Shown here: positions 18,194-48,986 of the stretch, piece after piece
How positions within the stretch are numbered: position 1 is the stretch's first letter
How the letters are laid out: each line of letters begins with the position of its first letter
IMG/VR virus record: IMGVR_UViG_3300043478_000082
Span: 507 to 64,506 of that record
DNA length: 64,000 nt
Origin: a virus
Direction: 5' to 3' (one strand)
Translations under genes and position numbers: made by a program
The notes under the pieces: model-generated
What the model saw: only the letters and a program-made list of their open reading frames with translations
What the model was told of the DNA's origin: nothing
The model's database searches: none

Positions 18194-18703
18194 TCACACA
18201 GCAGCACTCGGCGCCTCCCAGCCTGGTTGACCTTCGGCGGTGTTGTACCCGACCACCCGCTTCACCAGCGCGCTGGTCATGCCGTCGTCGTAGAGGCTCA
18301 GGCCGAACTGGTCACCGAGGTTGCTCGCCGCGCGCTTCAGCGCGCCGGACTCGGCCGACTTCAGCGCCATGTCGTGAGCGTCGCCCGGTGAGTAGTCGGG
18401 CATCGTCGACTCGGCCACCGACGAGCCGCTGTAGCGGGCTCCGGTGGCGAGGATCTCGATGGTGCAGTGCGCTCGGTAGGCGACCTTGATTCCGGCCTTG
18501 CCGTTCCGCAGCTCGTGGGCACGCTCGACCACGCACTCGGGCGGCCAGGTGTCCACCAGCGACCATCCGGCGAAGCCGAAGATGCGGTTCAGCGCGGCGC
18601 GGATGTCGAACGCCTCGACGTGGCTGTAGCCCTCGGGCGTCTGCTTCACGCGGTGCGCGGCGATCGGCCGCAGCAGCGTGGCGGTCTGCTCATCCGTCAA
18701 CAT
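18194..18703 (-). CDS. Rad52/Rad22-family (Sak) single-strand annealing protein
   Basis: GYSHVEAFDIRAALNRIFGFAGWS...A.KSAESGALKRAASNLGDQFGLSLY signature. Confidence 0.85.
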   Translation of the reverse strand: MLTDEQTATLLRPIAAHRVKQTPEGYSHVEAFDIRAALNRIFGFAGWSLVDTWPPECVVERAHELRNGKAGIKVAYRAHCTIEILATGARYSGSSVAESTMPDYSPGDAHDMALKSAESGALKRAASNLGDQFGLSLYDDGMTSALVKRVVGYNTAEGQPGWEAPSAAV

Positions 18704-21783: not shown

Positions 21784-22315
21784 CGGGAATCGGTGCCACG
21801 TCCCGCTGCATCCCTGCACCCCGGCATCGAGCCGGTTCGTACACGCGTCAGAGGCGGACCTGCCCACGCGGGGTTGGGCTCCCCGGTAGCGCGGTGTTCA
21901 AGATGCGGCTGAGGTGATCCTCAGTGAGGCTGGGGAGAACTGGGTCACGTCGCGTCAAGGGGCGCGCTTAGTAAGAGGGGTGCCCAGTGACCGGGTTCTC
22001 CGACCGGGGGTCCAGGGGGTTCGACCCCCTGGGATAGCAGGCGGAGGGGACCGGGGTCGCTACAACCCCCAGGTGCGAAGAACGAACGGGCGCGAGAGAA
22101 ACTGGACACGATCCAGACGCGTGCTCGACGGGCTGCCGATCGACAGGTATACTGAGCCACTGGGCAGCGCTTCGGTGTCTGTCCTTCCTGTACCAATCGG
22201 TCCCCGGCTGACGAGCCCCACCGCCCGTCGCCGGGGACCGTGCGGGTTCACAGGCGCTCTGCTAAGCCGAGTCGTTGAAGCGCCGCGGCGTTGAAGGCGA
22301 CGGCCCTGTGATCGG

Positions 22316-22546
22316 TCAGGGGACGCGCACCAGCGAGCGGGCCACCGTCATCCAGGCGCCGCCTCGGAACTCGACCTGCACTCGTGCCCTCGGCAGGCAC
22401 ATCACGACCTTCGCCCACGTCGAGAGCTCAGGGTCGTCCGGGCAGATCTGGATCCAGGTGCCAACCTTGATCTTCGGCGGCTCTTTGGCTGCTCGGACCT
22501 TCTGCGGCTTCGGCGCGGAACGCGGTCCGTCGAAGGTGTCGCTCAC
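22316..22546 (-). CDS. Small SH3/KOW-like hypothetical protein
   Basis: GTG 6 nt after TATACT (leaderless); KIKVGTWIQI...WAKVV...VQVEF beta pattern. Confidence 0.5.
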   Translation of the reverse strand: MSDTFDGPRSAPKPQKVRAAKEPPKIKVGTWIQICPDDPELSTWAKVVMCLPRARVQVEFRGGAWMTVARSLVRVP

Positions 22547-22550
22547 CTTG

Positions 22551-22561
22551 CTAGTATACCA
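22551..22561. promoter_or_regulatory. Overlapping divergent -10 boxes (TATACT on -, TAGTAT on +)
   Basis: Only 18 bp separate the starts at 22546(-) and 22565(+); each hexamer is 6-7 nt from its start codon. Confidence 0.6.
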
Positions 22562-22564
22562 GGC

Positions 22565-22861
22565 GTGAGGCGCACCGAACTGCGGCGGACCCCGATGCGT
22601 CGCAAGCCGAAGCGCGATCCGATGCCGCCGGAGTTGCGCGAAGAGGTCCTGCGCCGGGACGGCTACGGCTGTCAGGCGAGGGGGATCGCGCCCGGTCGCT
22701 GCTCGTATGGCTACGAGGTCCATCACCTCCTGGCCCGCGGTCGAGGTGGCCGCCATGAGCTCGCCAACCTGATGACGCTCTGCCCGCTGCATCACCACTG
22801 GGTGACCGATCACCCGATCGAGGCGGCCGAGCTGGGCCTCAACCGTCGTGGTTACGCCTAG
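22565..22861 (+). CDS. HNH endonuclease
   Basis: VLRRDGYGCQ...C...EVHHL...GG.H.LANLMTLCPLHH. Confidence 0.85.
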   Translation: MRRTELRRTPMRRKPKRDPMPPELREEVLRRDGYGCQARGIAPGRCSYGYEVHHLLARGRGGRHELANLMTLCPLHHHWVTDHPIEAAELGLNRRGYA

Positions 22862-22909
22862 GAAGCCTCGTGGCTTGCGCCTGAAGGCTTACGCGGCTAG
22901 GATGGGGCA

Positions 22910-23278
22910 GTGCAGGATGAAGATCAGTTCCCACAGCATGTGACCACGCCATACGAGATCGAACAGATGCTCGCTCGGGCCTTGAAACGTCTGGACGAGC
23001 TGACCACCGAGTACCGCCGAGTTGAGATGGACGCCGCCATCGCTGAGGCTGACTACCGCCGGGCGAAGGGCGTCAAGGCGCTGGCGATCATCCGCGGCAA
23101 CCTTCCAGCCAAGGAGCGCGACGCCCGCATCGAGTTGGAGCTGGACGAAGAGCGCAGAGTCCACCTGATCGCCCAGGCCGAGCTGCACAGCCACCGGGAG
23201 CTGCTCAACACGATCCGCACCCGGATCGAGGCCCTCCGCAGCCTGAACGCCTCGGTGCGGGTGCTGGCGACCCCGTGA
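22910..23278 (+). CDS. Coiled-coil hypothetical protein
   Basis: GTG 6 nt after TAGGAT; helical heptads. Confidence 0.6.
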   Translation: MQDEDQFPQHVTTPYEIEQMLARALKRLDELTTEYRRVEMDAAIAEADYRRAKGVKALAIIRGNLPAKERDARIELELDEERRVHLIAQAELHSHRELLNTIRTRIEALRSLNASVRVLATP

Positions 23279-23502
23279 AAGCGTGCAAGCTCTGCGGCGC
23301 CGAGGTCCGGTACGTGAGGACCCGCCTGGGCGTCAGGATGCCACTCGACCCCACCCCGACGAGTGACGGCACCATCGAGCTGACCGAGGACGACGACGGC
23401 GCCGAGGTAGCGGTGGCGACCGGCAACCTCACCCTGTTCCACCAGGAGGCCATCCGCTACACGCCTCACTGGCTGACCTGCCCCGAGAGGAACAATTCAT
23501 GA
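23275..23502 (+). CDS. Small Zn-binding phage protein
   Basis: CKLCG...RMPLDP.P...HWLTCP. Confidence 0.6.
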   Translation: MKACKLCGAEVRYVRTRLGVRMPLDPTPTSDGTIELTEDDDGAEVAVATGNLTLFHQEAIRYTPHWLTCPERNNS

Positions 23503-23756
23503 ATCAGCTCAGCCTGCGACGGCTGAAGTCGTTGCACCGCAAGGTGCTGGAGGGCGAGGCGGCTCGCATCGAACGGGACGTGCTGCTGTGGCAGATGTCG
23601 CGCGTCGAGGGCGAGACGCAGCAGGTGCTGGCCGACGCCCTCAATGAGGTCGCTGCCCAGCGCGGCGGCACGGCGATGAGTCGCAACGCGATCCAGAAGA
23701 TCGTCATGCGCGAGGACCGGACGGCCGAGAGCTTCCAGGAGCAGGGACGGACATGA
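23499..23756 (+). CDS. Small HTH-like protein
   Basis: TQQVLADALN...MSRNAIQKIV; coupled starts and stops. Confidence 0.5.
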   Translation: MNQLSLRRLKSLHRKVLEGEAARIERDVLLWQMSRVEGETQQVLADALNEVAAQRGGTAMSRNAIQKIVMREDRTAESFQEQGRT

Positions 23757-24415
23757 GCATCACGTACGACGAGAAGTCCCAGCCGCACCTCGTCCCGATC
23801 GACACGGTCGACGAGTACCCCGACAACCCCCGTCGCGGCGACACCAAGGCGCTGCGGGAGTCGATCCTCACCAACGGCTTCTACGGCGTGCTGATCGCCC
23901 AGCGCTCGACCGGGTTCATCCTGGCCGGGAACCACCGGCTCCGGGTGCTACGGGAGCTGGGCGCCAAGGACGTCCCGGTGATGTTCATCGACTGCTCCGA
24001 CTCCGACGCCAGGCGCATCGTGCTGGCCGACAACCGCACGAGCGACCTGGCGTTCTACGACGACCCGACGCTGTTCAAGCTGCTCCAGGAGCTTGACGGT
24101 GACCTCAGCGGCACCGGCTACGACCGGGCCAGCTACGAGCTGCTGCTGCAAGGACTGGAGGGCGAGCAGATCCTCGGCGGCATCGCCCAGGGGTTCAGCC
24201 CCGAAGAGCGGGAGGCGGCGTACATCGACAGCGAGGTGCGCTCGATCATCCTGCCGTACAGCGGCGAGGCGTACGACGACGTGGCCGAGAACCTCCAGGC
24301 GCTGCGCTCGGCACTCAGCCTCGACACCAACGCCGACGTGGTCGAGGTGCTGGCGCGCGTCGCTGTCTGCAACATCGACTGGTTCACCGGCGAGGTCCGG
24401 ACGGACACCTACTGA
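23753..24415 (+). CDS. ParB/Sulfiredoxin-like N-terminal domain protein
   Basis: YPDNPRRGD...LRESILTNGFYG.LI....FILAGNHRL..L..LG...VPV.FI...A..IVLADNR. Confidence 0.85.
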   Translation: MSITYDEKSQPHLVPIDTVDEYPDNPRRGDTKALRESILTNGFYGVLIAQRSTGFILAGNHRLRVLRELGAKDVPVMFIDCSDSDARRIVLADNRTSDLAFYDDPTLFKLLQELDGDLSGTGYDRASYELLLQGLEGEQILGGIAQGFSPEEREAAYIDSEVRSIILPYSGEAYDDVAENLQALRSALSLDTNADVVEVLARVAVCNIDWFTGEVRTDTY

Positions 24416-25395
24416 TGGCGACCCGCTCCACCGTGCAGATCCCGCGCATCGAGCGTGAGCGCGTCGTGCCGTGGGTCCGCTGCACGTACGCCGACACCCT
24501 CGACGAGCGCTGGGACGGCCAGCTCCGCTCGTGCGGTGCGCTGATCCCGTTCCACCCGAAGCACCCCTGTCGTCACTGCGGTCAGATCCAGGCCCGCGCC
24601 CACGCCGAGGCGCCGAAGGACCATCTCGTCATCGACGGCCCGGCGCAGATCATCGACGCCGGGACCGGCGAGGTCGTGTGCGTCCACTGGACGGGCGCCG
24701 AGTCGATCGCCACCCGCATCCAGCACGGCCTGAACGGCGTCGCCTGGCACGACGAGGTGGGGGCCAAGATCAACAACAGCGGACGCCTCAGCGGGCTGCG
24801 GGTGAGCCACCGGGTGTTCGGCTACACCCAGCCCGCTCCGATGCGTCAGCGCTACGGCTGTGCGACCAGCTCGTTCAACCTCGACCACCCAGACGTCTAC
24901 GCCGACGTCGAGCAGTTCTGCCTGCTGGCCGAGTGGGTGTTCCGCACCTTCGCTCCCGACGTGCACGAACACACCGGGACGGTCACCCGCAAGGCGATCC
25001 CCGACGCCTGGCGCATCGCCGGGACGCTGTGGACGAGCGGGATCATCAACAACACCGCGGCGCTCCCGATGCACAAGGACAGCTCCAACGTCAAGGGCTC
25101 GTGGTCCGCGATGCTGGGCTGTCGCCGACAGATGGGCGGCGGTCTGCTCTACCTCGCCGACTACGACTGCTACCTGTCGATCCCCCACGGGAGCATCAGC
25201 ATCTTCGACGGCCAGTCAGTGGTCCACGGCGTGACGCCGATGGAGCCCAGAGGCCCTCAGGCGAGCCGCTACACGCTCGTCAGCTACTCGAAGACGGCGA
25301 TGTGCCGCTGTGCCCCCAAGCGAGGAGACGAGGTGCGTAGAGCGGCTCTGGCGGCCACACGGGCGGAGGACAACAGGATGCGCCGTGGAACGTGA
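24415..25395 (+). CDS. TET/JBP-type 2OG-Fe(II) dioxygenase
   Basis: IINNTAALPMHKDSSN (HxD), GG.LYL, IFDGQSVVHGVTP (distal His), RYTLVSY (2OG-binding Arg); adjacent to a ParB-like gene as in phage TET/JBP loci. Confidence 0.8.
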   Translation: MATRSTVQIPRIERERVVPWVRCTYADTLDERWDGQLRSCGALIPFHPKHPCRHCGQIQARAHAEAPKDHLVIDGPAQIIDAGTGEVVCVHWTGAESIATRIQHGLNGVAWHDEVGAKINNSGRLSGLRVSHRVFGYTQPAPMRQRYGCATSSFNLDHPDVYADVEQFCLLAEWVFRTFAPDVHEHTGTVTRKAIPDAWRIAGTLWTSGIINNTAALPMHKDSSNVKGSWSAMLGCRRQMGGGLLYLADYDCYLSIPHGSISIFDGQSVVHGVTPMEPRGPQASRYTLVSYSKTAMCRCAPKRGDEVRRAALAATRAEDNRMRRGT

Positions 25396-26245
25396 AGCCG
25401 ACCTCCGCCTGTTCGCCCAGTGGCACGTCGACAGCGGCGACATCGACCCCGTGTACCCGGTGCTCCGCTGGATCGAGGAGGACGTGTGCGTCGACGAGAA
25501 CGAGGCCGTGGCGCTGACCTTCCTCTACGTCGCCTACTACGACCTGACCAGCGCGGTGATGACGTGGCTCGACGGCTGGCGGCCTGGCCAGGAGTTGGAC
25601 TGGACGCAGTTGAAGCGACCGACTGGCACCGAGCGCCGCGCCCACCGTGACCCGGCGCAGTTCGTGCCCCACCTCTACGAGCTGGGTCGGATGCTGCGCC
25701 CTGACTACATCGACGTGATGCGGAAGATGAACTGGTGGGAGCTCCAAGATGAGCTCGCCCGCTGGCGGGGGAACGGTCGCTGGGCGGCGTACAAGACCGG
25801 CGAGATGCTCGGCCAGGTCAACGACTGGGAGATCGAGCCGCTCGACGCCGGTCACGCCAACAGCTCGGGGCCGCGCAAGGGACTGGCCGACGTGTACCCG
25901 GACATGGCGCTCGTCGGCAACCGAGCGAGCGTGATCCGCCGTCTGGACACGCGCACGGCCGAGCTGGCCGCGGCGCTCGATCTGCCGGTCCGTCAGGTCG
26001 AGACGGTGCTGTGCGACTGGCACTCGACGCTCCAGGGTGGCTACTACGTCGGCCACGACATCGACCTCATGCTCGAGCAGTCGTTGCGCCCGCAAGTACC
26101 TGACCACATCCGCCACCTCATCATCGACGCCCGCAGTGACTCGTTCAACGACCGCTGGCTCGGTGAGGTCCACGGGTGGCCGGGCATCCGCCGGGAGCTG
26201 AAGAAGCGCTACCGAGACCAAGGGGAGCTGATCTGGTGGTCCTGA
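25385..26245 (+). CDS. Amino-acid:DNA transferase (alpha-glutamyl/putrescinyl thymine pyrophosphorylase-like, aGPT-PPlase family)
   Basis: GNGRWAAYKTGEML (HhH-like), HANSSGPRKGL and VETVLCDW....GYYVGHDID motifs; GTG 25385 after GGAGG. Confidence 0.7.
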   Translation: MEREADLRLFAQWHVDSGDIDPVYPVLRWIEEDVCVDENEAVALTFLYVAYYDLTSAVMTWLDGWRPGQELDWTQLKRPTGTERRAHRDPAQFVPHLYELGRMLRPDYIDVMRKMNWWELQDELARWRGNGRWAAYKTGEMLGQVNDWEIEPLDAGHANSSGPRKGLADVYPDMALVGNRASVIRRLDTRTAELAAALDLPVRQVETVLCDWHSTLQGGYYVGHDIDLMLEQSLRPQVPDHIRHLIIDARSDSFNDRWLGEVHGWPGIRRELKKRYRDQGELIWWS

Positions 26246-26667
26246 AAGTGACCTACCCGCTCTGGGAGGACGAGAAGAAGGTCCGCGCCATCGCCAAGCG
26301 CTGCGGACCGTTCGTGTCGACCTACCGCGGGATGCGCGGTCTGCGCGACTACTACGACAAGGGCTGGGTCGGTCTGGTCTGGGCCGACGATGAGCCGGTG
26401 GGCTTCTGGGTGATCCGCCAGGGGATCCGCAACAAGTGGACGACCATCCACGAGATCGGCGTTGTGCCCGAGGCACAGCGGAGGGGCTACGGGGAGCAGA
26501 TGATCAACTTCCTGCTGTCCTCGTCGCCCTACTGGTGCCTGCGACTGGTCTGCGACGCCCGCAACGAGGGCGGCCTGGCGTTCTACCGCCGGATGGGCTT
26601 CAAGCGGCTCCACACCCGCTTCAACAAGGCAGGAGACACCATCGTGGACTTGGTGCTGAGCGCATGA
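26236..26667 (+). CDS. GNAT-family acetyltransferase
   Basis: IHEIGVVPEAQRRGYGEQMI (motif A) and NEGGLAFYRRMGF. Confidence 0.85.
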   Translation: MVLKVTYPLWEDEKKVRAIAKRCGPFVSTYRGMRGLRDYYDKGWVGLVWADDEPVGFWVIRQGIRNKWTTIHEIGVVPEAQRRGYGEQMINFLLSSSPYWCLRLVCDARNEGGLAFYRRMGFKRLHTRFNKAGDTIVDLVLSA

Positions 26668-27425
26668 GGCTGCTCGTCGTCGGCAACGGCATCGCTGGGT
26701 CGTGCGTGGCCCATCAGGCCCGCGCTCGGGGCTACCGGGTCACCGTGATGGCCGACAGCACCCGTCCAGCGGCCGCGGAGGCCGCGCTGTGCGTCGTGCG
26801 CCCGTCGTGGTTCTCGGGGGTCGAGCGGAGCATGGTCTGGCACGCCCTCGGCTGGTACGAGCGCATCGGGGCCGTCACGAGCGGCCTGGCCGACTACTCG
26901 GCCTACAACACGAAGATCCGCGAGCGCCGGACCGGCTACTTCGCCATCGACCCGTCCAAGGTGCTCGTGGAGCCCGATCTGGACGATCGGTACGAGGGTC
27001 GGCCCGAGGGCTACGACGCCGTGACCCTGTGCCTCGGTGCGTACTCCGACGTGTTCTGGAAGCGGACCTGGGGCGTCACGAGCGTGGTCGAGCACGAGGG
27101 GCCCGCGCTGCGCGCTCACTTCGCCCGCCCGCGGGAGGTGCTGTTCGCCGTGTGCCACGACGGCGCTCACGTCCGCTTCGGCAGCGCGGTCGGCGCCACC
27201 GAGTCCCAGGCGCGCTTTCGCCAGCAGATGATGGAGGATCGGGCCCGCGCCGTGGGGATGCTGAGCGGCGATGTCTCCCATATCGTGGGACAGCGGCTGA
27301 TGCCGCCCGGTCAGGTCGGCCCGGTGGAGCTCCGCGAGCCCGGCGTGTGGACGATGCACGGCTTCGGCCGCGTCGGGTTCAGCTTCGCCCCCGCCCGCGC
27401 CGAGGAACTGCTGGCGAAGCTCTGA
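26664..27425 (+). CDS. FAD-dependent oxidoreductase/lyase (DAO/glycine-oxidase-like)
   Basis: N-terminal LLVVGNGIAG Rossmann motif; C-terminal HGFGRVGFSFAP..A; ATGA overlap. Confidence 0.8.
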   Translation: MRLLVVGNGIAGSCVAHQARARGYRVTVMADSTRPAAAEAALCVVRPSWFSGVERSMVWHALGWYERIGAVTSGLADYSAYNTKIRERRTGYFAIDPSKVLVEPDLDDRYEGRPEGYDAVTLCLGAYSDVFWKRTWGVTSVVEHEGPALRAHFARPREVLFAVCHDGAHVRFGSAVGATESQARFRQQMMEDRARAVGMLSGDVSHIVGQRLMPPGQVGPVELREPGVWTMHGFGRVGFSFAPARAEELLAKL

Positions 27426-27937
27426 TGCGCGTTGTCTACGTCATCGGGGCGCCCGGCTCTGGCAAGTCGACGGCGGTCAGTCTGGCGACGCGCGACTGGG
27501 AGCACATCGTCGACTGGAAGCGCCCGTTCGCCCACAGCGTCTACGTCGAGGGCGTCCGCCTCGGGCGCACCGAGGCGCAGTTCCCCGGCACCGACACGCT
27601 GTCGATGAGCGTGAACCCGCTGGCGTGCGAGTTCGTGCAGACCGACGACTACCCGCTGTGCGTGGCCGAGGGCGACCGGTTGGCGAACGCCAAGTTCCTC
27701 GATGCCTGCCCGAGCCTCACGCTGATCCACCTCGACGTGTCGGTGGCCGTCGCTCGTGAGCGGGCGCGCAAGCGGGCGGAGCAGTTCGGCAGCAGGGTTC
27801 AGGACGAGAGCTGGTGGAAGGGGCGGGTGACCAAGGTGGACAACCTGCGAGCGCGCTTCCCACACGTGAGCGTCGATGGTTCCCGCACGTCGGAGGCCGT
27901 AGCCGCCGACGTGCGGGAGATCATCCTACGTCCGTGA
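27425..27937 (+). CDS. P-loop kinase (candidate 5-hydroxymethyluracil DNA kinase)
   Basis: YVIGAPGSGKST Walker A; GTDTLS and VAEGDRL segments; TGATG coupling. Confidence 0.7.
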   Translation: MRVVYVIGAPGSGKSTAVSLATRDWEHIVDWKRPFAHSVYVEGVRLGRTEAQFPGTDTLSMSVNPLACEFVQTDDYPLCVAEGDRLANAKFLDACPSLTLIHLDVSVAVARERARKRAEQFGSRVQDESWWKGRVTKVDNLRARFPHVSVDGSRTSEAVAADVREIILRP

Positions 27938-31056: not shown

Positions 31057-32535
31057 CTAGCTGCCGTTGCTGGCGAGCTCGTACCTGTAGTCGCCGTCGC
31101 CGTCGACGACCCTGGTCCCGTGCACGGCCTTCTGGATCACCTCGCCCAGTGCGGCGCTGAGGTGGACGTCCACCCGCTCCTCGCTGGCGCCCTCCATCAG
31201 CCGGTACTGGTCACGCAGCGCGTCGGCGGCCAGGCAGATCGCCTCGGTGCCGATCGCCCCGATCCTGCCGTTGTTCAGCGTGATCGAGTAGCGGACGCTG
31301 CGGTCGAACACCTCCCGCACGAAGGCGGGCATGTAGCCCTCGCAGCGTCGATACACCTCGTCCCAGTCGACGTCTTCGTCGAGCGTGGCGATCACCCGCC
31401 GTCCCAACTGCTCGATCCCCGGCCGGTCCATCGCGCCGATCGAGATGACCGCACCGATGCGGCCCGGTCGCAGCATCCCCTTGTGGATGTCCTCGGCGTG
31501 GTTGGTGGTGAAGATGGTGAGCAGCCTCAGCCCCTTGGCCTTGATCCCGTCGAGCATGTCGAGGTGACGCTCGATGGTGTTGCCGGACTGCGGGCCCGCC
31601 ATCGTGTCCACGTCCTCCGCGAACACGACGGCGGGCTGGTACATCCGGGCCATCTCCAGCGTGGTGACGAGGTTGTCCCGCCCTGGTCGGCACATCAGGA
31701 ACGTCCACCCGTTGGCGACGGCGATCTGCGCCGTGAGCATGGCGGCACCGGTCTTGCCGGTCCCGTACGGCCCCTCCAACAGAGCGGCGAACTTGCCGTC
31801 CTGCCCGAGCGTGGCGAGCAGCTCGCTGTGGCGGATGAAGCACCACACGTCGCCCTCCAGGCGGCGCGTCACTGACTCGGTGAACACGAAGTCAGCCGGG
31901 TCGATCACGTCGACGTCGATGAAGTTCTCGCCGCCGTCGATCGCCTTCCCCTTGTAGATCGAGTTCTCCCGCAGGTGCTTCTCGATCAGCTTGAACAGGC
32001 CGTCGAGGTGACGACGCCACTTGCGCGGCGCCTCCACGGTGACGGAGAAGACCACGCCCAACTCGGGGTCCCTGGCGCTGCCAAGGTGGAGCGTGGCGCC
32101 GGACAGACCGGGGATCTGCATCGCTCCCCACGGCACCTGCTCGGTGTCGTCCTGGCCCGGTCCGGTCTTGATGTCGATGAGCTGGGGGAGCTGGCGCCCG
32201 AAGAACGTGTAGAGCGTCTTGCCCAGCGTGAACCCGGCGAACTCCTTGATCGCCAGGCGTGTCGCCCGAGCCCCGTCGTGGGGGCGGTACGGGAACACCT
32301 TGGTGAACTCGACGAGGTTCTCTTCGTCGTCGAGCCGCTTCTGGAGGAAGCTGATGCCGCTCTCCAGCGTGGCGTTGGCCGGGAGGATGTACTTCGTCCC
32401 GGTGAACACGATGTCGTCGTCGGTGTGAAGCCCACCACCGATCTCAGCGAGCCGAACGAGTGCCTCCTCGCGGAGCTGCTCCTCCTGGCTCTTCGGAACT
32501 TCGAGCTCCGAGCGCGGGCGGTTCTTGACTGCCAT
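31057..32535 (-). CDS. AAA+ ATPase (classic CDC48/FtsH-like clade)
   Basis: Walker A GPYGTGKT, Walker B VVFAEDVD, SRH TTNHAEDIHKGMLRPGRIG; ATG 32535 after ACAGGAAGGAC. Confidence 0.9.
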   Translation of the reverse strand: MAVKNRPRSELEVPKSQEEQLREEALVRLAEIGGGLHTDDDIVFTGTKYILPANATLESGISFLQKRLDDEENLVEFTKVFPYRPHDGARATRLAIKEFAGFTLGKTLYTFFGRQLPQLIDIKTGPGQDDTEQVPWGAMQIPGLSGATLHLGSARDPELGVVFSVTVEAPRKWRRHLDGLFKLIEKHLRENSIYKGKAIDGGENFIDVDVIDPADFVFTESVTRRLEGDVWCFIRHSELLATLGQDGKFAALLEGPYGTGKTGAAMLTAQIAVANGWTFLMCRPGRDNLVTTLEMARMYQPAVVFAEDVDTMAGPQSGNTIERHLDMLDGIKAKGLRLLTIFTTNHAEDIHKGMLRPGRIGAVISIGAMDRPGIEQLGRRVIATLDEDVDWDEVYRRCEGYMPAFVREVFDRSVRYSITLNNGRIGAIGTEAICLAADALRDQYRLMEGASEERVDVHLSAALGEVIQKAVHGTRVVDGDGDYRYELASNGS

Positions 32536-32642
32536 CTGGGTCCTTCCTGTAGGAAGCGGGACCGGAGTGTCCCTGTGCCAGCACCGAGCGCCCGCCCTCG
32601 GTGCTGACGCAGCGACACTCCGGTGGGTGGAGTGCCGCCGGT

Positions 32643-32852
32643 TCACACGCTCTTGAACAGCACTCGCTGCGTCTCCACGAGACGAGTTGCTGCGATCATC
32701 AGGGCATCGCGCCTGACCCCTTCGTCGGCCTTCTCCCAGGCCAGGTTCCACGCTCGCCACGCGGCGTTCTCTTCCTCGTCGGTGGCCTGGCAGTAGTCCA
32801 CCAGCACGCGGAACAGGTCTTGTGCTCGCATCTTGATCAGTGCTTCGGGCAT
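32643..32852 (-). CDS. Small hypothetical protein
   Basis: ATG after ACAGGAAGGAC and a promoter motif. Confidence 0.6.
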   Translation of the reverse strand: MPEALIKMRAQDLFRVLVDYCQATDEEENAAWRAWNLAWEKADEGVRRDALMIAATRLVETQRVLFKSV

Positions 32853-34825: not shown

Positions 34826-35881
34826 TCACGACACTGCCGCCGGACCCTCCGGCTCCTCTTCCAGGACCGCCACGTCGGCCACGAAGTCGTGCCCGTCGTC
34901 GGTGAGCTCCAGGCTGTGCACCGTGGAGGATGAGCCGATGCGCTTCAGCAGACCAATGCCGACCGCATCGCTGATCGCCTGGACCGCCGTGCGTCGCCTG
35001 ATGCGTTCCTGGTGCTCCAGGTACTCCCGTGCCTCGGTGCTCGTCACCCGTCCGTACTTGCGCACGTAGACGAGCAGCGTGGTCAGCCGAGCGTCGTCAC
35101 CGAAGGCCGCCTTCTTGGCGTACATCAGCTCGATCTCGGTCTTCATCGCGCGGCGGATGAAGGTGACCTGCCCTCCGGTGATCGGACTCTCGGCCTCGAT
35201 CGGCACTCGGTTCACGTCGTACACCCAGCCGTGGTCGACCATGCCGACGTTCGACTTCACGACCCCGATGATCTTGGCGTCACCCCGGTGCCCGACGAAC
35301 AGGACCTGGCGGGCCACCGTGGACAGTCCGACCGAGCCGAGCATGGCGTTCACGGTCGGCTTCTTGATCTCCTTCGTCGTGTGGTGCACGGCGATGAGCG
35401 TGATGCCCCGTCGTGCGCAGGCGAGGATGACGGGCTTCAGCCGCTTCTGCACTCCGGCGTAGCTCGTCAGGCTGCCCGAGAACTGGGGAATCAGCGGGTC
35501 CAGGATCACGACCCTGGCCCCGGTCACCTCACAGGCGATCAGCAGCTCGTCCAGGTGGTCGGGGAGCACCAGGTCGTCGCGGCTGTGGATGAGCTTCATG
35601 TCCGCCCCGGCGACCAGCAGGTTGGGGAGGATGGTGACCTCGGGGTCGTCCTCAGAGTTGATCAGCAGGACTGGCGTGGGATGTCCGGCGTAGTCGCCCG
35701 GCAGCTCGCCCCGACTCAGCAGCGCGGCCAGGTGGGTGGTGAGCGTGGACTTCGACTCGCCCCCTGGCCCGACGATGAACGTCATCGTGGCCTCGGGGAT
35801 CATCGTCTCCCACACCCAGCGTCGGCGTGATGCCTGACGCTGAGCGAACGACCACGTCCCGGTGTTCTCCTCCTCGCTCAC
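34826..35881 (-). CDS. RepA/AAA_25-type (RecA-superfamily) replicative helicase with C-terminal wHTH
   Basis: FIVGPGGESKST, LINSEDD, VVILDP, AVHHTTKE, MLGSVGL..VARQV, IGVVKSN; GTG 35881. Confidence 0.8.
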   Translation of the reverse strand: MSEEENTGTWSFAQRQASRRRWVWETMIPEATMTFIVGPGGESKSTLTTHLAALLSRGELPGDYAGHPTPVLLINSEDDPEVTILPNLLVAGADMKLIHSRDDLVLPDHLDELLIACEVTGARVVILDPLIPQFSGSLTSYAGVQKRLKPVILACARRGITLIAVHHTTKEIKKPTVNAMLGSVGLSTVARQVLFVGHRGDAKIIGVVKSNVGMVDHGWVYDVNRVPIEAESPITGGQVTFIRRAMKTEIELMYAKKAAFGDDARLTTLLVYVRKYGRVTSTEAREYLEHQERIRRRTAVQAISDAVGIGLLKRIGSSSTVHSLELTDDGHDFVADVAVLEEEPEGPAAVS

Positions 35882-36042
35882 AGCTTCCTCAGGCGGGCGA
35901 CGAAGTGCTCGTCGAGCTCGTCGCCCTCGTTGAGGATGCGGGAGAGGTTGATCGCCGCGATCGCGGCGTGGTGAGCCAGCCCTCGCTGTCGCAGCGTGGC
36001 GTAGGCGGCGAGTGCTTCCCACTCGTCTGGCGTGAATGCCAT
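35878..36042 (-). CDS. Small hypothetical protein
   Basis: ATG 36042 after ACAGGAAGGAC. Confidence 0.55.
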   Translation of the reverse strand: MAFTPDEWEALAAYATLRQRGLAHHAAIAAINLSRILNEGDELDEHFVARLRKL

Positions 36043-46693: not shown

Positions 46694-48069
46694 TGGACCT
46701 CGATGCGTATCGCACCTGGACCCCTGCCGCGCAGCAGCGAGCACTGTCCGCGCTTCAGGCTCGCACCAACGACACCTGGCGTCCCTTTTACTGCCCGCGG
46801 GCTGGCTGCGACGGAAACCCACACGACACCTGGGAGTGGAACCACGCCCGTGCCGACCAGCATCCACCCAAGGACCTCGACTGGCTCACCTGGCTGATCA
46901 CCAGCGGGCGAGGGGCGGGCAAGACGCGCACCGGGGCCGAGCTGACCCACCAGATGACCGAGGTGACCGGGCGCCTGGCCGTCATCGCAGCGACCGGCGC
47001 CGACGTGCGTGACACCTGCCTGGAGGGCGAGAGCGGCATCCTCACCATCGCCCGCCCCGACCGGCGCCCCAAGTACGAGCCGTCGAAGCGCCGCCTGACA
47101 TGGCCCAACGGCTGCGTCGGCACCACGTTCTCGGCCGAGGAGCCCGACCGCCTGCGCGGCCCCGAGCACGGATACGCCTGGTGGGACGAGCCCGCTCACG
47201 CGCCGCTGTGTCAGGACGTCTGGGACAACCTCCTGTTCGGCCTGCGCATCGGCACTCGCCCGCGCACCGTGCTGACGACGACGCCCAAGCCCCGACCTTG
47301 GTTGAAGGGCGTGCTCGCTGACCCGCGCACGCGCCTGACGGTGACGTCGACGTACGCCAACCTGGCGAACCTCGCCCCGACGTACGCCGAGCAGGTGATC
47401 GCCCGCTACGAGGGGACCAGGCTCGGCCGCCAGGAGCTGCACGGCGAGATCCTGGAGGACGTCGAGGGCGCGCTGTGGACGTGGGAGATGATCGAGGCGT
47501 CGCGCGTCGTGCACGCGCCGGAGCTCGTCAGGGTGGTTGTAGGTGTCGACCCGGCCGGATCGTCGCGAGTGCAAGCCGATGAGACCGGGATCGTCGTCGT
47601 CGGGCGTGACGCCAGCGGCGAGATCTACGTCATCGCCGACCGCTCCGGCCACTACACGCCGCTCGGCTGGGCGACCGCCGCCCACCACGCCTACGAGGAC
47701 TACGACGCCGACGCCATCGTGGCCGAGGTCAACTTCGGCGCCGACATGGTGGCGTCCACCATCCGTTCCAGCGGCTTCACCGACCGCCTGATCACCGTGC
47801 GCGCTCGTCACGGCAAAGACGCTCGCGCTGAGCCGATCGTCGGCCTGTGGGAGCAGCAGCGAGCGCACATCGTCGGCACGCTGCCCGAGCTGGAGGCGCA
47901 GCTCGTGTCGTGGGTGCCGTACTCCGGCGACCACAGCCCCGACCGCCTCGACGCGATGGTCTACGCCGCCACCATCGTCGCCCACCAGCCGGGTCGGGTC
48001 GAGGTCATCTCGCCGGTCCACATGCAGATCACCACGGGCGGCATCCCAGGACTGAGGAGAGTGCAGTGA
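46693..48069 (+). CDS. terL: Terminase large subunit
   Basis: GRGAGKT Walker A, WWDE Walker B, VGVDP and DRLDA RNase H-like nuclease motifs. Confidence 0.92.
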   Translation: MDLDAYRTWTPAAQQRALSALQARTNDTWRPFYCPRAGCDGNPHDTWEWNHARADQHPPKDLDWLTWLITSGRGAGKTRTGAELTHQMTEVTGRLAVIAATGADVRDTCLEGESGILTIARPDRRPKYEPSKRRLTWPNGCVGTTFSAEEPDRLRGPEHGYAWWDEPAHAPLCQDVWDNLLFGLRIGTRPRTVLTTTPKPRPWLKGVLADPRTRLTVTSTYANLANLAPTYAEQVIARYEGTRLGRQELHGEILEDVEGALWTWEMIEASRVVHAPELVRVVVGVDPAGSSRVQADETGIVVVGRDASGEIYVIADRSGHYTPLGWATAAHHAYEDYDADAIVAEVNFGADMVASTIRSSGFTDRLITVRARHGKDARAEPIVGLWEQQRAHIVGTLPELEAQLVSWVPYSGDHSPDRLDAMVYAATIVAHQPGRVEVISPVHMQITTGGIPGLRRVQ

Positions 48070-48986
48070 TCCTGTGCGTCTACGCCATCATGCGCGACGA
48101 GGTCGACAACGTGCTGCCGTGGGCCGAGACGACGGTCGACGCCGACGTGCGCTTCGTGCTCGACACCGGCTCGGTCGACCACACGCCCGAGCACCTCGTG
48201 GCTGCGGGGGTCCGCGTGGCCAGCGGCCGGTACGAGCCGTTCCGCTTCGACGATGCTCGCAACGCCGCGCTGGCCCTGTCGCCCGAGGCCGACCTGTTCC
48301 TGCGCCTCGATGCCGACGAGCGCCTGCCCGACGACTGGCGGAGCCAGCTCGACGACGCCTACAGCGAGCGCATCCCGCGCTACCGCTACCGGGTCCACAA
48401 CACCGATGGCGTCTGGGGCACGATCACTCGCGACGACATCCATCAGCGTCCGGGCTTCCGTTGGAAGTACCCGACCCACGAGGTGCTGCTCGGCCCACCC
48501 GTCGCCGTCGACCTCCCCCGCTTCGTCGTGCAGCACACGAGTCCACCGGAGCGGCGTTCGCACCATCACTCGAACCTCGACGTGCTGGCGAACGCCATCT
48601 TCGAGTACCCCGGCGACCACCGGATGCACTTCTACCTCGCCCGCGAGTTCTGGTACGCCGGACAGTGGGGCGACTGCCGCCTGGCGATGATGAACTTCCT
48701 GTCGCTCCCCAACGGCTGGGGCGCCGAGCGGGCCGAGGCGTACCGCATCCTCGCCGCCATCGACGACTACCCCGAGCGGTGGCTGTGGAAGGCGGTCGGT
48801 GAGGCGCCCGAGCGGCGCGAGCCGTGGGTCGACCTCGCCCGGCTCTTCGTCAGCACCGGCGACGGTCAGCGCGCCACGCTGATGCTGAGCGAGGCCGAGC
48901 GGCGTACCGACGAGACGATCTACACGACCGACCCGAGGGCCTGGGGTCCGGGGTTCGACGCGCTGCGCGACGCGTGCTCGGTGTGA
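48066..48986 (+). CDS. GT2-family glycosyltransferase with TPR-like C-terminus
   Basis: VYAI..DE, VLDTGSVDHT, F.FDDARNAAL, LRLDADE (DxD), W..P.HE; helical repeats with FYLARE. Confidence 0.85.
   Translation: MILCVYAIMRDEVDNVLPWAETTVDADVRFVLDTGSVDHTPEHLVAAGVRVASGRYEPFRFDDARNAALALSPEADLFLRLDADERLPDDWRSQLDDAYSERIPRYRYRVHNTDGVWGTITRDDIHQRPGFRWKYPTHEVLLGPPVAVDLPRFVVQHTSPPERRSHHHSNLDVLANAIFEYPGDHRMHFYLAREFWYAGQWGDCRLAMMNFLSLPNGWGAERAEAYRILAAIDDYPERWLWKAVGEAPERREPWVDLARLFVSTGDGQRATLMLSEAERRTDETIYTTDPRAWGPGFDALRDACSV

Follow-up and report, generated by a model that had tools for sequence, protein, structure and literature searches.

A six-gene cassette in an uncultured soil actinophage predicted to hypermodify thymine in DNA after replication

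The genome of a soil actinophage, represented by IMG/VR virus record IMGVR_UViG_3300043478_000082, contains a cassette of six genes that probably constitutes a complete post-replicative pathway for thymine hypermodification, making 5-acetylaminomethyl-deoxyuridine (5-AcNmdU) by the steps proposed below. The stretch analysed (hereafter, the window) comprises 64,000 nucleotides, positions 507 to 64,506 of the record, and all coordinates refer to it. The cassette (23753-27937, all genes on the + strand) encodes, in order, a ParB-like protein, a TET/JBP dioxygenase of the Fe(II)/2-oxoglutarate (2OG) type, an amino-acid:DNA transferase (AADT), a GNAT acetyltransferase, an enzyme dependent on flavin adenine dinucleotide (FAD), and a P-loop kinase, with junction overlaps of 1, 11, 10, 4, and 1 nt. 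An earlier reading based on the letters of the DNA (the sequence-only reading) had described six tightly coupled genes here; the coordinates proved exact, and its gene assignments hold, with Pfam and PHROG searches in agreement. Gene identities, catalytic residues, folds, synteny, and the absence of other routes to 5-hydroxymethyluracil (5hmU) were all observed. It is very likely that the cassette encodes a dioxygenase-started thymine hypermodification pathway, while 5-AcNmdU as the end product is a somewhat better than even prospect.

The dioxygenase (326 aa; 24415-25395, + strand) matches Tet_JBP with an E-value of 1.6e-7 and 31.1 bits, missing the curated PF12851 cut-off of 34.9, and 117 of 120 listed homologues carry a precomputed PF12851 match. 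The HKD...H...R motif remarked on in the sequence-only reading corresponds to H220, D222, H271, and R285 (HxD...H...R: the iron triad and the 2OG-binding Arg), all of which are invariant in 56 homologues. The AlphaFold (AF2) model of the protein (pLDDT 93, pTM 0.90) has CcTet, TET2, and NgTET1 as its top PDB matches, and its top 15 matches in the Swiss-Prot part of AFDB are all trypanosomatid JBP1/JBP2 (E 3e-16 to 3e-12; root-mean-square deviation ~3.2-3.8 Å over ~235 residues, 16-21% identity), with the 5-methylcytosine (5mC) enzymes NgTet1 (E 7e-10) and CMD1 ranking behind them. The JBP alignments begin at residue ~61-70, past an N-terminal Cys4 module (residues ~21-57, window 24475-24585; C23, C40, C52, and C55) that looks like a zinc ribbon. 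The four cysteines are kept in all 41 homologues having this region, which is absent from shorter (~278 aa) relatives, and towards the other end of the protein a confident C-terminal helix (303-325) comes after C299, a residue that 53 of 56 homologues share. By analogy with characterised enzymes, the dioxygenase is predicted to oxidise thymine to 5hmU in DNA. The label 'queuine tRNA-ribosyltransferase' or 'DpdA-like', attached to phrog_6059 and to many mycobacteriophage gp2 entries, is ruled out by the Pfam and fold matches and represents an inherited misannotation.

The ParB-like protein (220 aa; 23753-24415, + strand), the stop of which overlaps the start of the dioxygenase by 1 nt, matches phrog_723 (E 8e-35) and, below the curated Pfam cut-off, ParB_N (E 1e-4). 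Its AF2 model consists of a confident ParB/Srx nucleotide-binding domain (NBD; residues 1-100), two weak helices, a disordered linker, and confident C-terminal helices (171-212), and among PDB structures it matches ParB, Noc, and KorB best. No helix-turn-helix (HTH) family was matched in the protein by Pfam, although a degenerate HTH could lie within residues 100-165, a weak or disordered part of the model. O'Toole et al. (PNAS 2026) reported that phage 5mYOX enzymes oxidise thymine to 5hmU in DNA post-replicatively and that a 5mYOX subclass with a neighbouring ParB, linked to P-loop kinases and AADTs, needs that ParB as an activator on canonical double-stranded DNA, the activity of the 5mYOX176/ParB176 pair being shown in vivo and in vitro (PMC13229309). 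No stable ParB-dioxygenase complex was trapped in that study, and likewise the complex prediction made here for the two proteins (score 0.16 against a mark of 0.32, without control runs) gives no evidence either way. By analogy, the ParB-like protein is predicted to be an activator of the dioxygenase; 'activated by' fits better than the targeting role suggested in the sequence-only reading, as the studied ParB is required on double-stranded DNA and has no obvious DNA-binding domain.

Other sources of 5hmU are absent from the genome. The full record is 64,764 bp long and 100% complete as estimated by CheckV, and six-frame searches of the whole genome with hidden Markov models (HMMs; E<=1), the same searches giving matches in control genomes, found no Thymidylat_synt (which covers dUMP and dCMP hydroxymethylases) or Thy1/ThyX, no DNA_pol_A, DNA_pol_B, or DNA_pol3_alpha, and no C5 DNA_methylase or dCMP_cyt_deam_1. 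The lack of a hydroxymethylase of the thymidylate synthase (TS) type, a dCMP deaminase, a DNA polymerase, and a C5-methyltransferase, which had been claimed for a nearly complete genome, is thus confirmed for the complete one. The reservation that a hydroxymethylase or polymerase might sit in the missing part is answered as well, since the 764 bp outside the window (506 and 258 bp at the ends) are too small to hide either and none was found. With no polymerase or nucleotide-level hydroxymethylase of its own, the phage would have its DNA copied from ordinary dTTP by host enzymes, and, given the absence of these families, the sole route to a C5-functionalised pyrimidine would be the oxidation of thymine in the polymer.

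For the tailoring enzymes, the point of reference is Pseudomonas phage PaMx11, in which the chemistry of gp46-gp49 leading to 5-AcNmdU has been reconstituted in vitro (Lee et al., NAR 2021, PMC8989533) and the pathway rationalised structurally (Wen et al. 2024, PMC11472151). The P-loop kinase (170 aa; 27425-27937, + strand) matches Ploopntkinase3 (PF18751) with 82 bits against a cut-off of 27, has a Walker A motif (GAPGSGKS), and is predicted from its sequence to be a 5-hmU DNA kinase (5-HMUDK); its match to PaMx11 gp49 is weak (E 8e-6), and homologues are present in 417 actinophage records. Hundreds of actinophage records carry the labels 'terminase small subunit' or 'adenylate kinase' for this protein, inherited misannotations that are ruled out by the Ploopntkinase3 match.

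The AADT (aGPT-Pplase2, PF18724; 286 aa; 25385-26245, + strand) scores 68 bits against a Pfam cut-off of 26.2 (ADDT) and keeps 10 of the 12 residues that the PaMx11 gp46 crystal structure places in the active site. C210, E206, T207, and D21 align with gp46 C247, E243, T244, and D24, and W133, K137, E83, and D225 align with gp46 W146, K150, E92, and D262; per gp46, C210 would be the Cys nucleophile, E206 and T207 metal ligands, and D21, W133, and K137 contacts to glycine. Five of these residues (C210, E206, T207, D21, and K137) are invariant across the AADT homologues of PaMx11, M6, PhiW-14, and the actinophages. The enzyme is predicted to swap the phosphate of 5-phosphomethyl-U for an amino acid, and the donor is probably glycine, because the neighbouring genes are gp47- and gp48-like and because, in a single contrast, the position of W133 holds Trp in the glycine transferases but Tyr in the putrescine transferase. 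The identity of this donor is the chief uncertainty of the pathway.

The FAD-dependent enzyme (253 aa; 26664-27425, + strand; Pfam DAO 38.2 bits against 27.9) has a GxGxxG motif (VVGNGIAGS) and, among solved structures, is closest in sequence to PaMx11 gp47 (8z79/8z2o; E 1.4e-6). W49, F50, R211, R186, and R236 align with gp47 W51, F52, R242, R210, and K268; in gp47, Trp51 and Phe52 form the base cage and Arg242 is proposed to bind the glycyl carboxylate (PMC11472151). From this resemblance the flavoenzyme is predicted to be an N-alpha-glycyl-thymine oxidase/lyase yielding 5-aminomethyl-U. The GNAT (143 aa; 26236-26667, + strand; Acetyltransf_1 44.4 bits against 20.7) aligns with PaMx11 gp48 across 120 of its 143 aa at 30% identity (E 2e-18), and its 17 matches in 50,697 phage records are all gp48 orthologues in Pseudomonas phages, located beside gp47-like genes; it is predicted on these grounds to be a 5-aminomethyl-U N-acetyltransferase.

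In the pathway that we propose, the phage DNA would be copied by the host with ordinary dTTP and then modified as a polymer. By homology to the 5mYOX176/ParB176 pair, the cognate ParB would activate the JBP-like dioxygenase, which would then hydroxylate a subset of thymines in double-stranded DNA to 5hmU. The subsequent steps are modelled on the chemistry reconstituted for PaMx11 gp46-gp49: the P-loop kinase would phosphorylate the hydroxymethyl group to give 5-phosphomethyl-dU (5-PmdU), Cys210 of the AADT would attack C6, expel the phosphate, and add an amino acid, most likely glycine, to give N-alpha-glycyl-thymine (N-alpha-GlyT), the gp47-like flavoenzyme would oxidise the N-C-alpha bond, with hydrolysis freeing glyoxylate and leaving 5-aminomethyl-U, and the gp48-like GNAT would acetylate the amine to give 5-AcNmdU. 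The likely benefit is the shielding of phage DNA from host nucleases. We infer all of the chemistry, which amino acid is used, how extensively and in what sequence context thymine is modified, and what biological role the modification has; the on-DNA route from T to acetylaminomethyl-U put forward in the sequence-only reading is nonetheless well supported by the JBP-like fold, the gp46 residues, the gp47 and gp48 relatives, and the absence of other 5hmU sources.

Two further metagenomic contigs carry all six genes in an identical order, with protein identities of 67-88% (L005) and 49-66% (L010), and dN/dS relative to L005 is 0.22-0.53. A decaying or inactive cassette is ruled out by the intact catalytic residues, the intact frames, and dN/dS <1. 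A neighbourhood census was made of the 80 best IMG/VR relatives of the dioxygenase, found with an alignment as query; with just the one dioxygenase sequence as query, the database gave no match. A ParB is present in 55 of the 80 loci, directly upstream of the TET gene, a kinase in 21, an AADT in nine, and a gp47-like flavoenzyme in three, while neither a gp48-like GNAT nor a TS homologue (of the PaMx11 hydroxymethylase type) occurs in any of the 80. Thirteen loci have a kinase with no recognisable AADT within the flank. Closer relatives share a constant ParB-dioxygenase head, which is followed by AADT-GNAT-FAD-kinase, as here, or by alternative modules: AADT-Amidoligase_2-LMWPc-FAD-kinase, radical SAM/SPASM with a methyltransferase (Methyltransf_21), a kinase only, or nothing. 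The varied modules (in L006, L008, L009, L011-L013, L080, and two ENA contigs), some of which are unannotated proteins of 228-305 aa, point to uncharacterised thymine modifications.

Several observations weigh against the proposed pathway. The phage is known from soil-metagenome contigs only, with all of its chemistry deduced, and the two proteins of the cassette head, as matched by ParB_N and Tet_JBP, both score below the curated Pfam cut-offs. The gene order differs from that of PaMx11, the GNAT preceding the FAD enzyme here. With identities of 19-21%, the AADT is as far from the glycine transferases (gp46 and M6 gp51) as from the putrescine transferase PhiW-14 gp109. The flavoenzyme aligns confidently with gp47 over the first ~100 residues only, and the DNA-handling residues Y180 (the wedge), Q182, and Y244 of gp47 align to a gap, Arg, and Met, with the central alignment uncertain at such divergence. 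Further, the characterised phage 5mYOXs oxidise 5mC as well as T in vitro (PMC13229309).

The observations on the AADT and the flavoenzyme bear on the identity of the donor. The equal distance of the AADT from glycine and putrescine transferases and the three differing residues, which in gp47 contact substrate or DNA, would also fit the same general pathway operating with a donor other than glycine and ending in a base other than 5-AcNmdU, possibly an uncatalogued one. Relatives that fill the slot between AADT and flavoenzyme with Amidoligase_2 and an LMWPc-like protein lend this some weight, as the swap indicates that flavoenzymes of this family take part in more than one kind of chemistry. 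The carboxylate-binding Trp (Tyr in the putrescine enzyme) and the Arg aligned with gp47 R242 are kept, though, the only phage relatives of the GNAT are gp48 orthologues, and in PaMx11 the gp46/gp47/gp48 trio works in the glycine route only (PMC8989533), so that a different donor appears unlikely. An AADT that loads another donor, with the flavoenzyme and GNAT making it into an uncatalogued thymine derivative entirely on host-replicated DNA at sites selected by the ParB and the dioxygenase, is a doubtful prospect.

The nature of the substrate can be questioned in two further ways. It seems highly improbable that the cassette is directed at host DNA, or at RNA such as tRNA U34, on which MnmC-type flavoenzymes act, rather than at phage DNA: the weak NCBIfam matches of the flavoenzyme are to MnmC and ThiO but involve its N-terminal FAD motif only, for each of the five enzymes, as for the ParB, the closest characterised relatives act on DNA polymers, the dioxygenase fold matches the DNA-acting JBP and TET enzymes, and the characterised 5mYOXs are inactive on nucleosides and nucleotides (PMC13229309). 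Least probable, to the point of being scarcely credible, is a dioxygenase that starts a cytosine hypermodification from 5mC made by a host methyltransferase. The comparable in vitro oxidation of 5mC by characterised phage T-dioxygenases would allow it, but the complete genome has no C5-methyltransferase in the six-frame HMM searches, the kinase, AADT, flavoenzyme, and GNAT families are all characterised on 5hmU derivatives, and the dioxygenase fold is closest to the JBP thymine dioxygenases; the PaMx11 TS-type hydroxymethylase is likewise missing from the 80 related loci, C5-methyltransferases not being among the census queries. Activity on 5mC had been named in the sequence-only reading as grounds for abandoning the thymine pathway, a view that is no longer tenable because characterised enzymes oxidise both bases about equally in vitro (PMC13229309), and what counts is the lack of a C5-methyltransferase and the downstream enzymes of a 5hmU pathway.

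The source phage is an uncultured soil actinophage of high-GC bacteria. The genome has a GC content of 65-72%, its portal protein is at most 38.5% identical to the portals of Arthrobacter, Microbacterium, Mycobacterium, and Gordonia phages, and the sequencing runs containing the locus, among assembled Logan contigs, are soil metagenomes only; the assignment follows from these features. A megablast search of the cassette against 50,697 phage records returned no match, and thus there is no close isolate among them.

The cassette forms the end, with the kinase last, of a rightward block of eleven abutting genes. Five small genes (97, 98 HNH, 122, 75, and 85 aa; 22275..23756, + strand; the HNH protein matches PF01844) abut or overlap one another and the ParB gene and probably belong to the same transcription unit. 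Two of them, encoding the 122-aa helical protein (22910-23278, + strand) and the 98-aa HNH endonuclease (22565-22861, + strand), recur upstream of the ParB-dioxygenase pair in ~20 related loci, fairly distant ones included, which may reflect backbone synteny or a functional link. A promoter-like motif, GGTATACTGA (22146..22155, + strand), lies ~120 nt ahead of the gene that opens the block and is the single near-consensus + strand copy of a recurrent element, GGTATACTTA, for which 2.7 matches (<=2 mismatches) would be expected in the window by chance and 17 are present. Perfect copies of the element are all on the - strand, ahead of leftward genes, and 11 - strand copies with <=1 mismatch are located between 16071 and 45261; TCGACG-17-TATACT was also flagged at 22125-22153 (+ strand). 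We infer a promoter role for this element, and, because the only good + strand copy precedes the operon of the cassette, its position suggests that the cassette is expressed together with early genes.

Elsewhere in the window, a replication and recombination set on the - strand comprises a Rad52/Rad22-type annealase (18194-18703), an AAA/nSTAND-like ATPase (31057-32760), and an AAA_25 (RepA/DnaB-like) ATPase (34826-36022), of which the AAA/nSTAND-like ATPase is also kept near the cassette in relatives. At 47847-48986 (+ strand), an open reading frame (ORF) that overlaps the large terminase gene at its end matches phrog_13126 'beta-1,4-glycosyltransferase' (E 1.6e-52), with no match in Pfam; its product is probably a glycosyltransferase for virion proteins, such as some mycobacteriophages have, although it may act on 5hmU in DNA. 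Of 20 further ORFs scanned against PHROGs, most gave no match, in part because selection by GC content at third codon positions can pick the wrong frame.

Should the product be confirmed, six small genes would provide a self-contained route from thymine in finished DNA to 5-acetylaminomethyl-uracil, requiring neither a phage polymerase nor any rewiring of the nucleotide pool. Such a route would join two halves that have so far been studied apart, ParB-dependent thymine oxidation and PaMx11-type tailoring, and would offer a portable means of writing 5-acetylaminomethyl-uracil into DNA in vivo. Phages that protect their DNA through thymine hypermodification would gain a soil actinophage lineage as well, in a setting where tailoring modules appear to be freely exchanged behind a constant ParB-dioxygenase head.

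Amongst known systems, the front end most resembles 5mYOX clade C1 with its ParB, in that the ParB gene lies directly upstream of Tet_JBP, the dioxygenase has a C-terminal extension past the last conserved Cys, a C5-methyltransferase is lacking (here, from the whole genome), and a P-loop kinase and an AADT are linked; the comparison with clade C1 is by described traits. The model of the ParB-like protein has the layout described for ParB176, with an NBD, short helices, a disordered linker, and a C-terminal domain; a DNA-binding domain is not evident in it, as far as the poorly modelled middle region allows. The dioxygenase described here also has an N-terminal Cys4 module, for which a word search for 'zinc' and 'cysteine' in the main text of PMC13229309 brought up no counterpart, 'zinc' not occurring there at all. 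The downstream steps of the O'Toole clusters were not reconstituted in that work (PMC13229309). The statement of the sequence-only reading that no biochemical demonstration exists fails for the step from T to 5hmU (PMC13229309) and stands for the six-gene combination, full reconstitution of which is undone. JBP1/JBP2 of base J synthesis are the best structural match to the dioxygenase and likewise begin by oxidising T in DNA to 5hmU, which is then decorated, but JBPs are large multidomain eukaryotic proteins with no ParB partner, and their 5hmU is glucosylated rather than phosphorylated and aminated.

The back end corresponds to that of PaMx11, with the same four enzyme families (AADT, FAD lyase, GNAT, and 5-hmU DNA kinase) and catalytic residues kept, although identities are only 19-32% and the host here is an actinobacterium, not a pseudomonad. 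In PaMx11-type phages 5hmdU is supplied at the nucleotide level by a dUMP hydroxymethylase (Lee et al., PMC8989533), and PaMx11 has a TS homologue beside the cassette, whereas the present phage has neither a TS homologue nor a polymerase and would start from T in DNA. A dioxygenase-started route and architecture was predicted from metaviromes by Lee et al. (PMC8989533), in line with the statement in the sequence-only reading that neighbourhoods combining TET/JBP and aGPT genes had been predicted, and the combination occurs in isolates: Mycobacterium phages Phelemich and Reprobate (gp1-gp5, ParB-TET-AADT-FAD-kinase) and Rhodococcus phage Tonitrus (gp1-gp7, ParB-TET-AADT-kinase, published as a 'thymidine hypermodification system'), with a related set, in which a ParB was not detected, in Microbacterium phage Kozie (gp1-gp4). 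These actinophage cassettes have in common with the present one a Tet_JBP dioxygenase, a kinase, and an AADT, the AADTs being 37-42% identical, and a gp47-like flavoenzyme was matched in Phelemich and Reprobate (29%) and in Kozie (30%) but not in Tonitrus. Their cassettes precede the terminase at the left end of the genome, unlike the mid-genome position in an early-type rightward operon found here, and all are without a gp48-like GNAT, so that these pathways are predicted to end with 5-aminomethyl-U or some other base. The cassette is thus not new in kind, each step having a characterised counterpart elsewhere; its uncommon feature, found in such cassettes in two other contigs only, is the gp48-like acetyltransferase, which makes the PaMx11-type back end complete in a cassette that starts with a dioxygenase.

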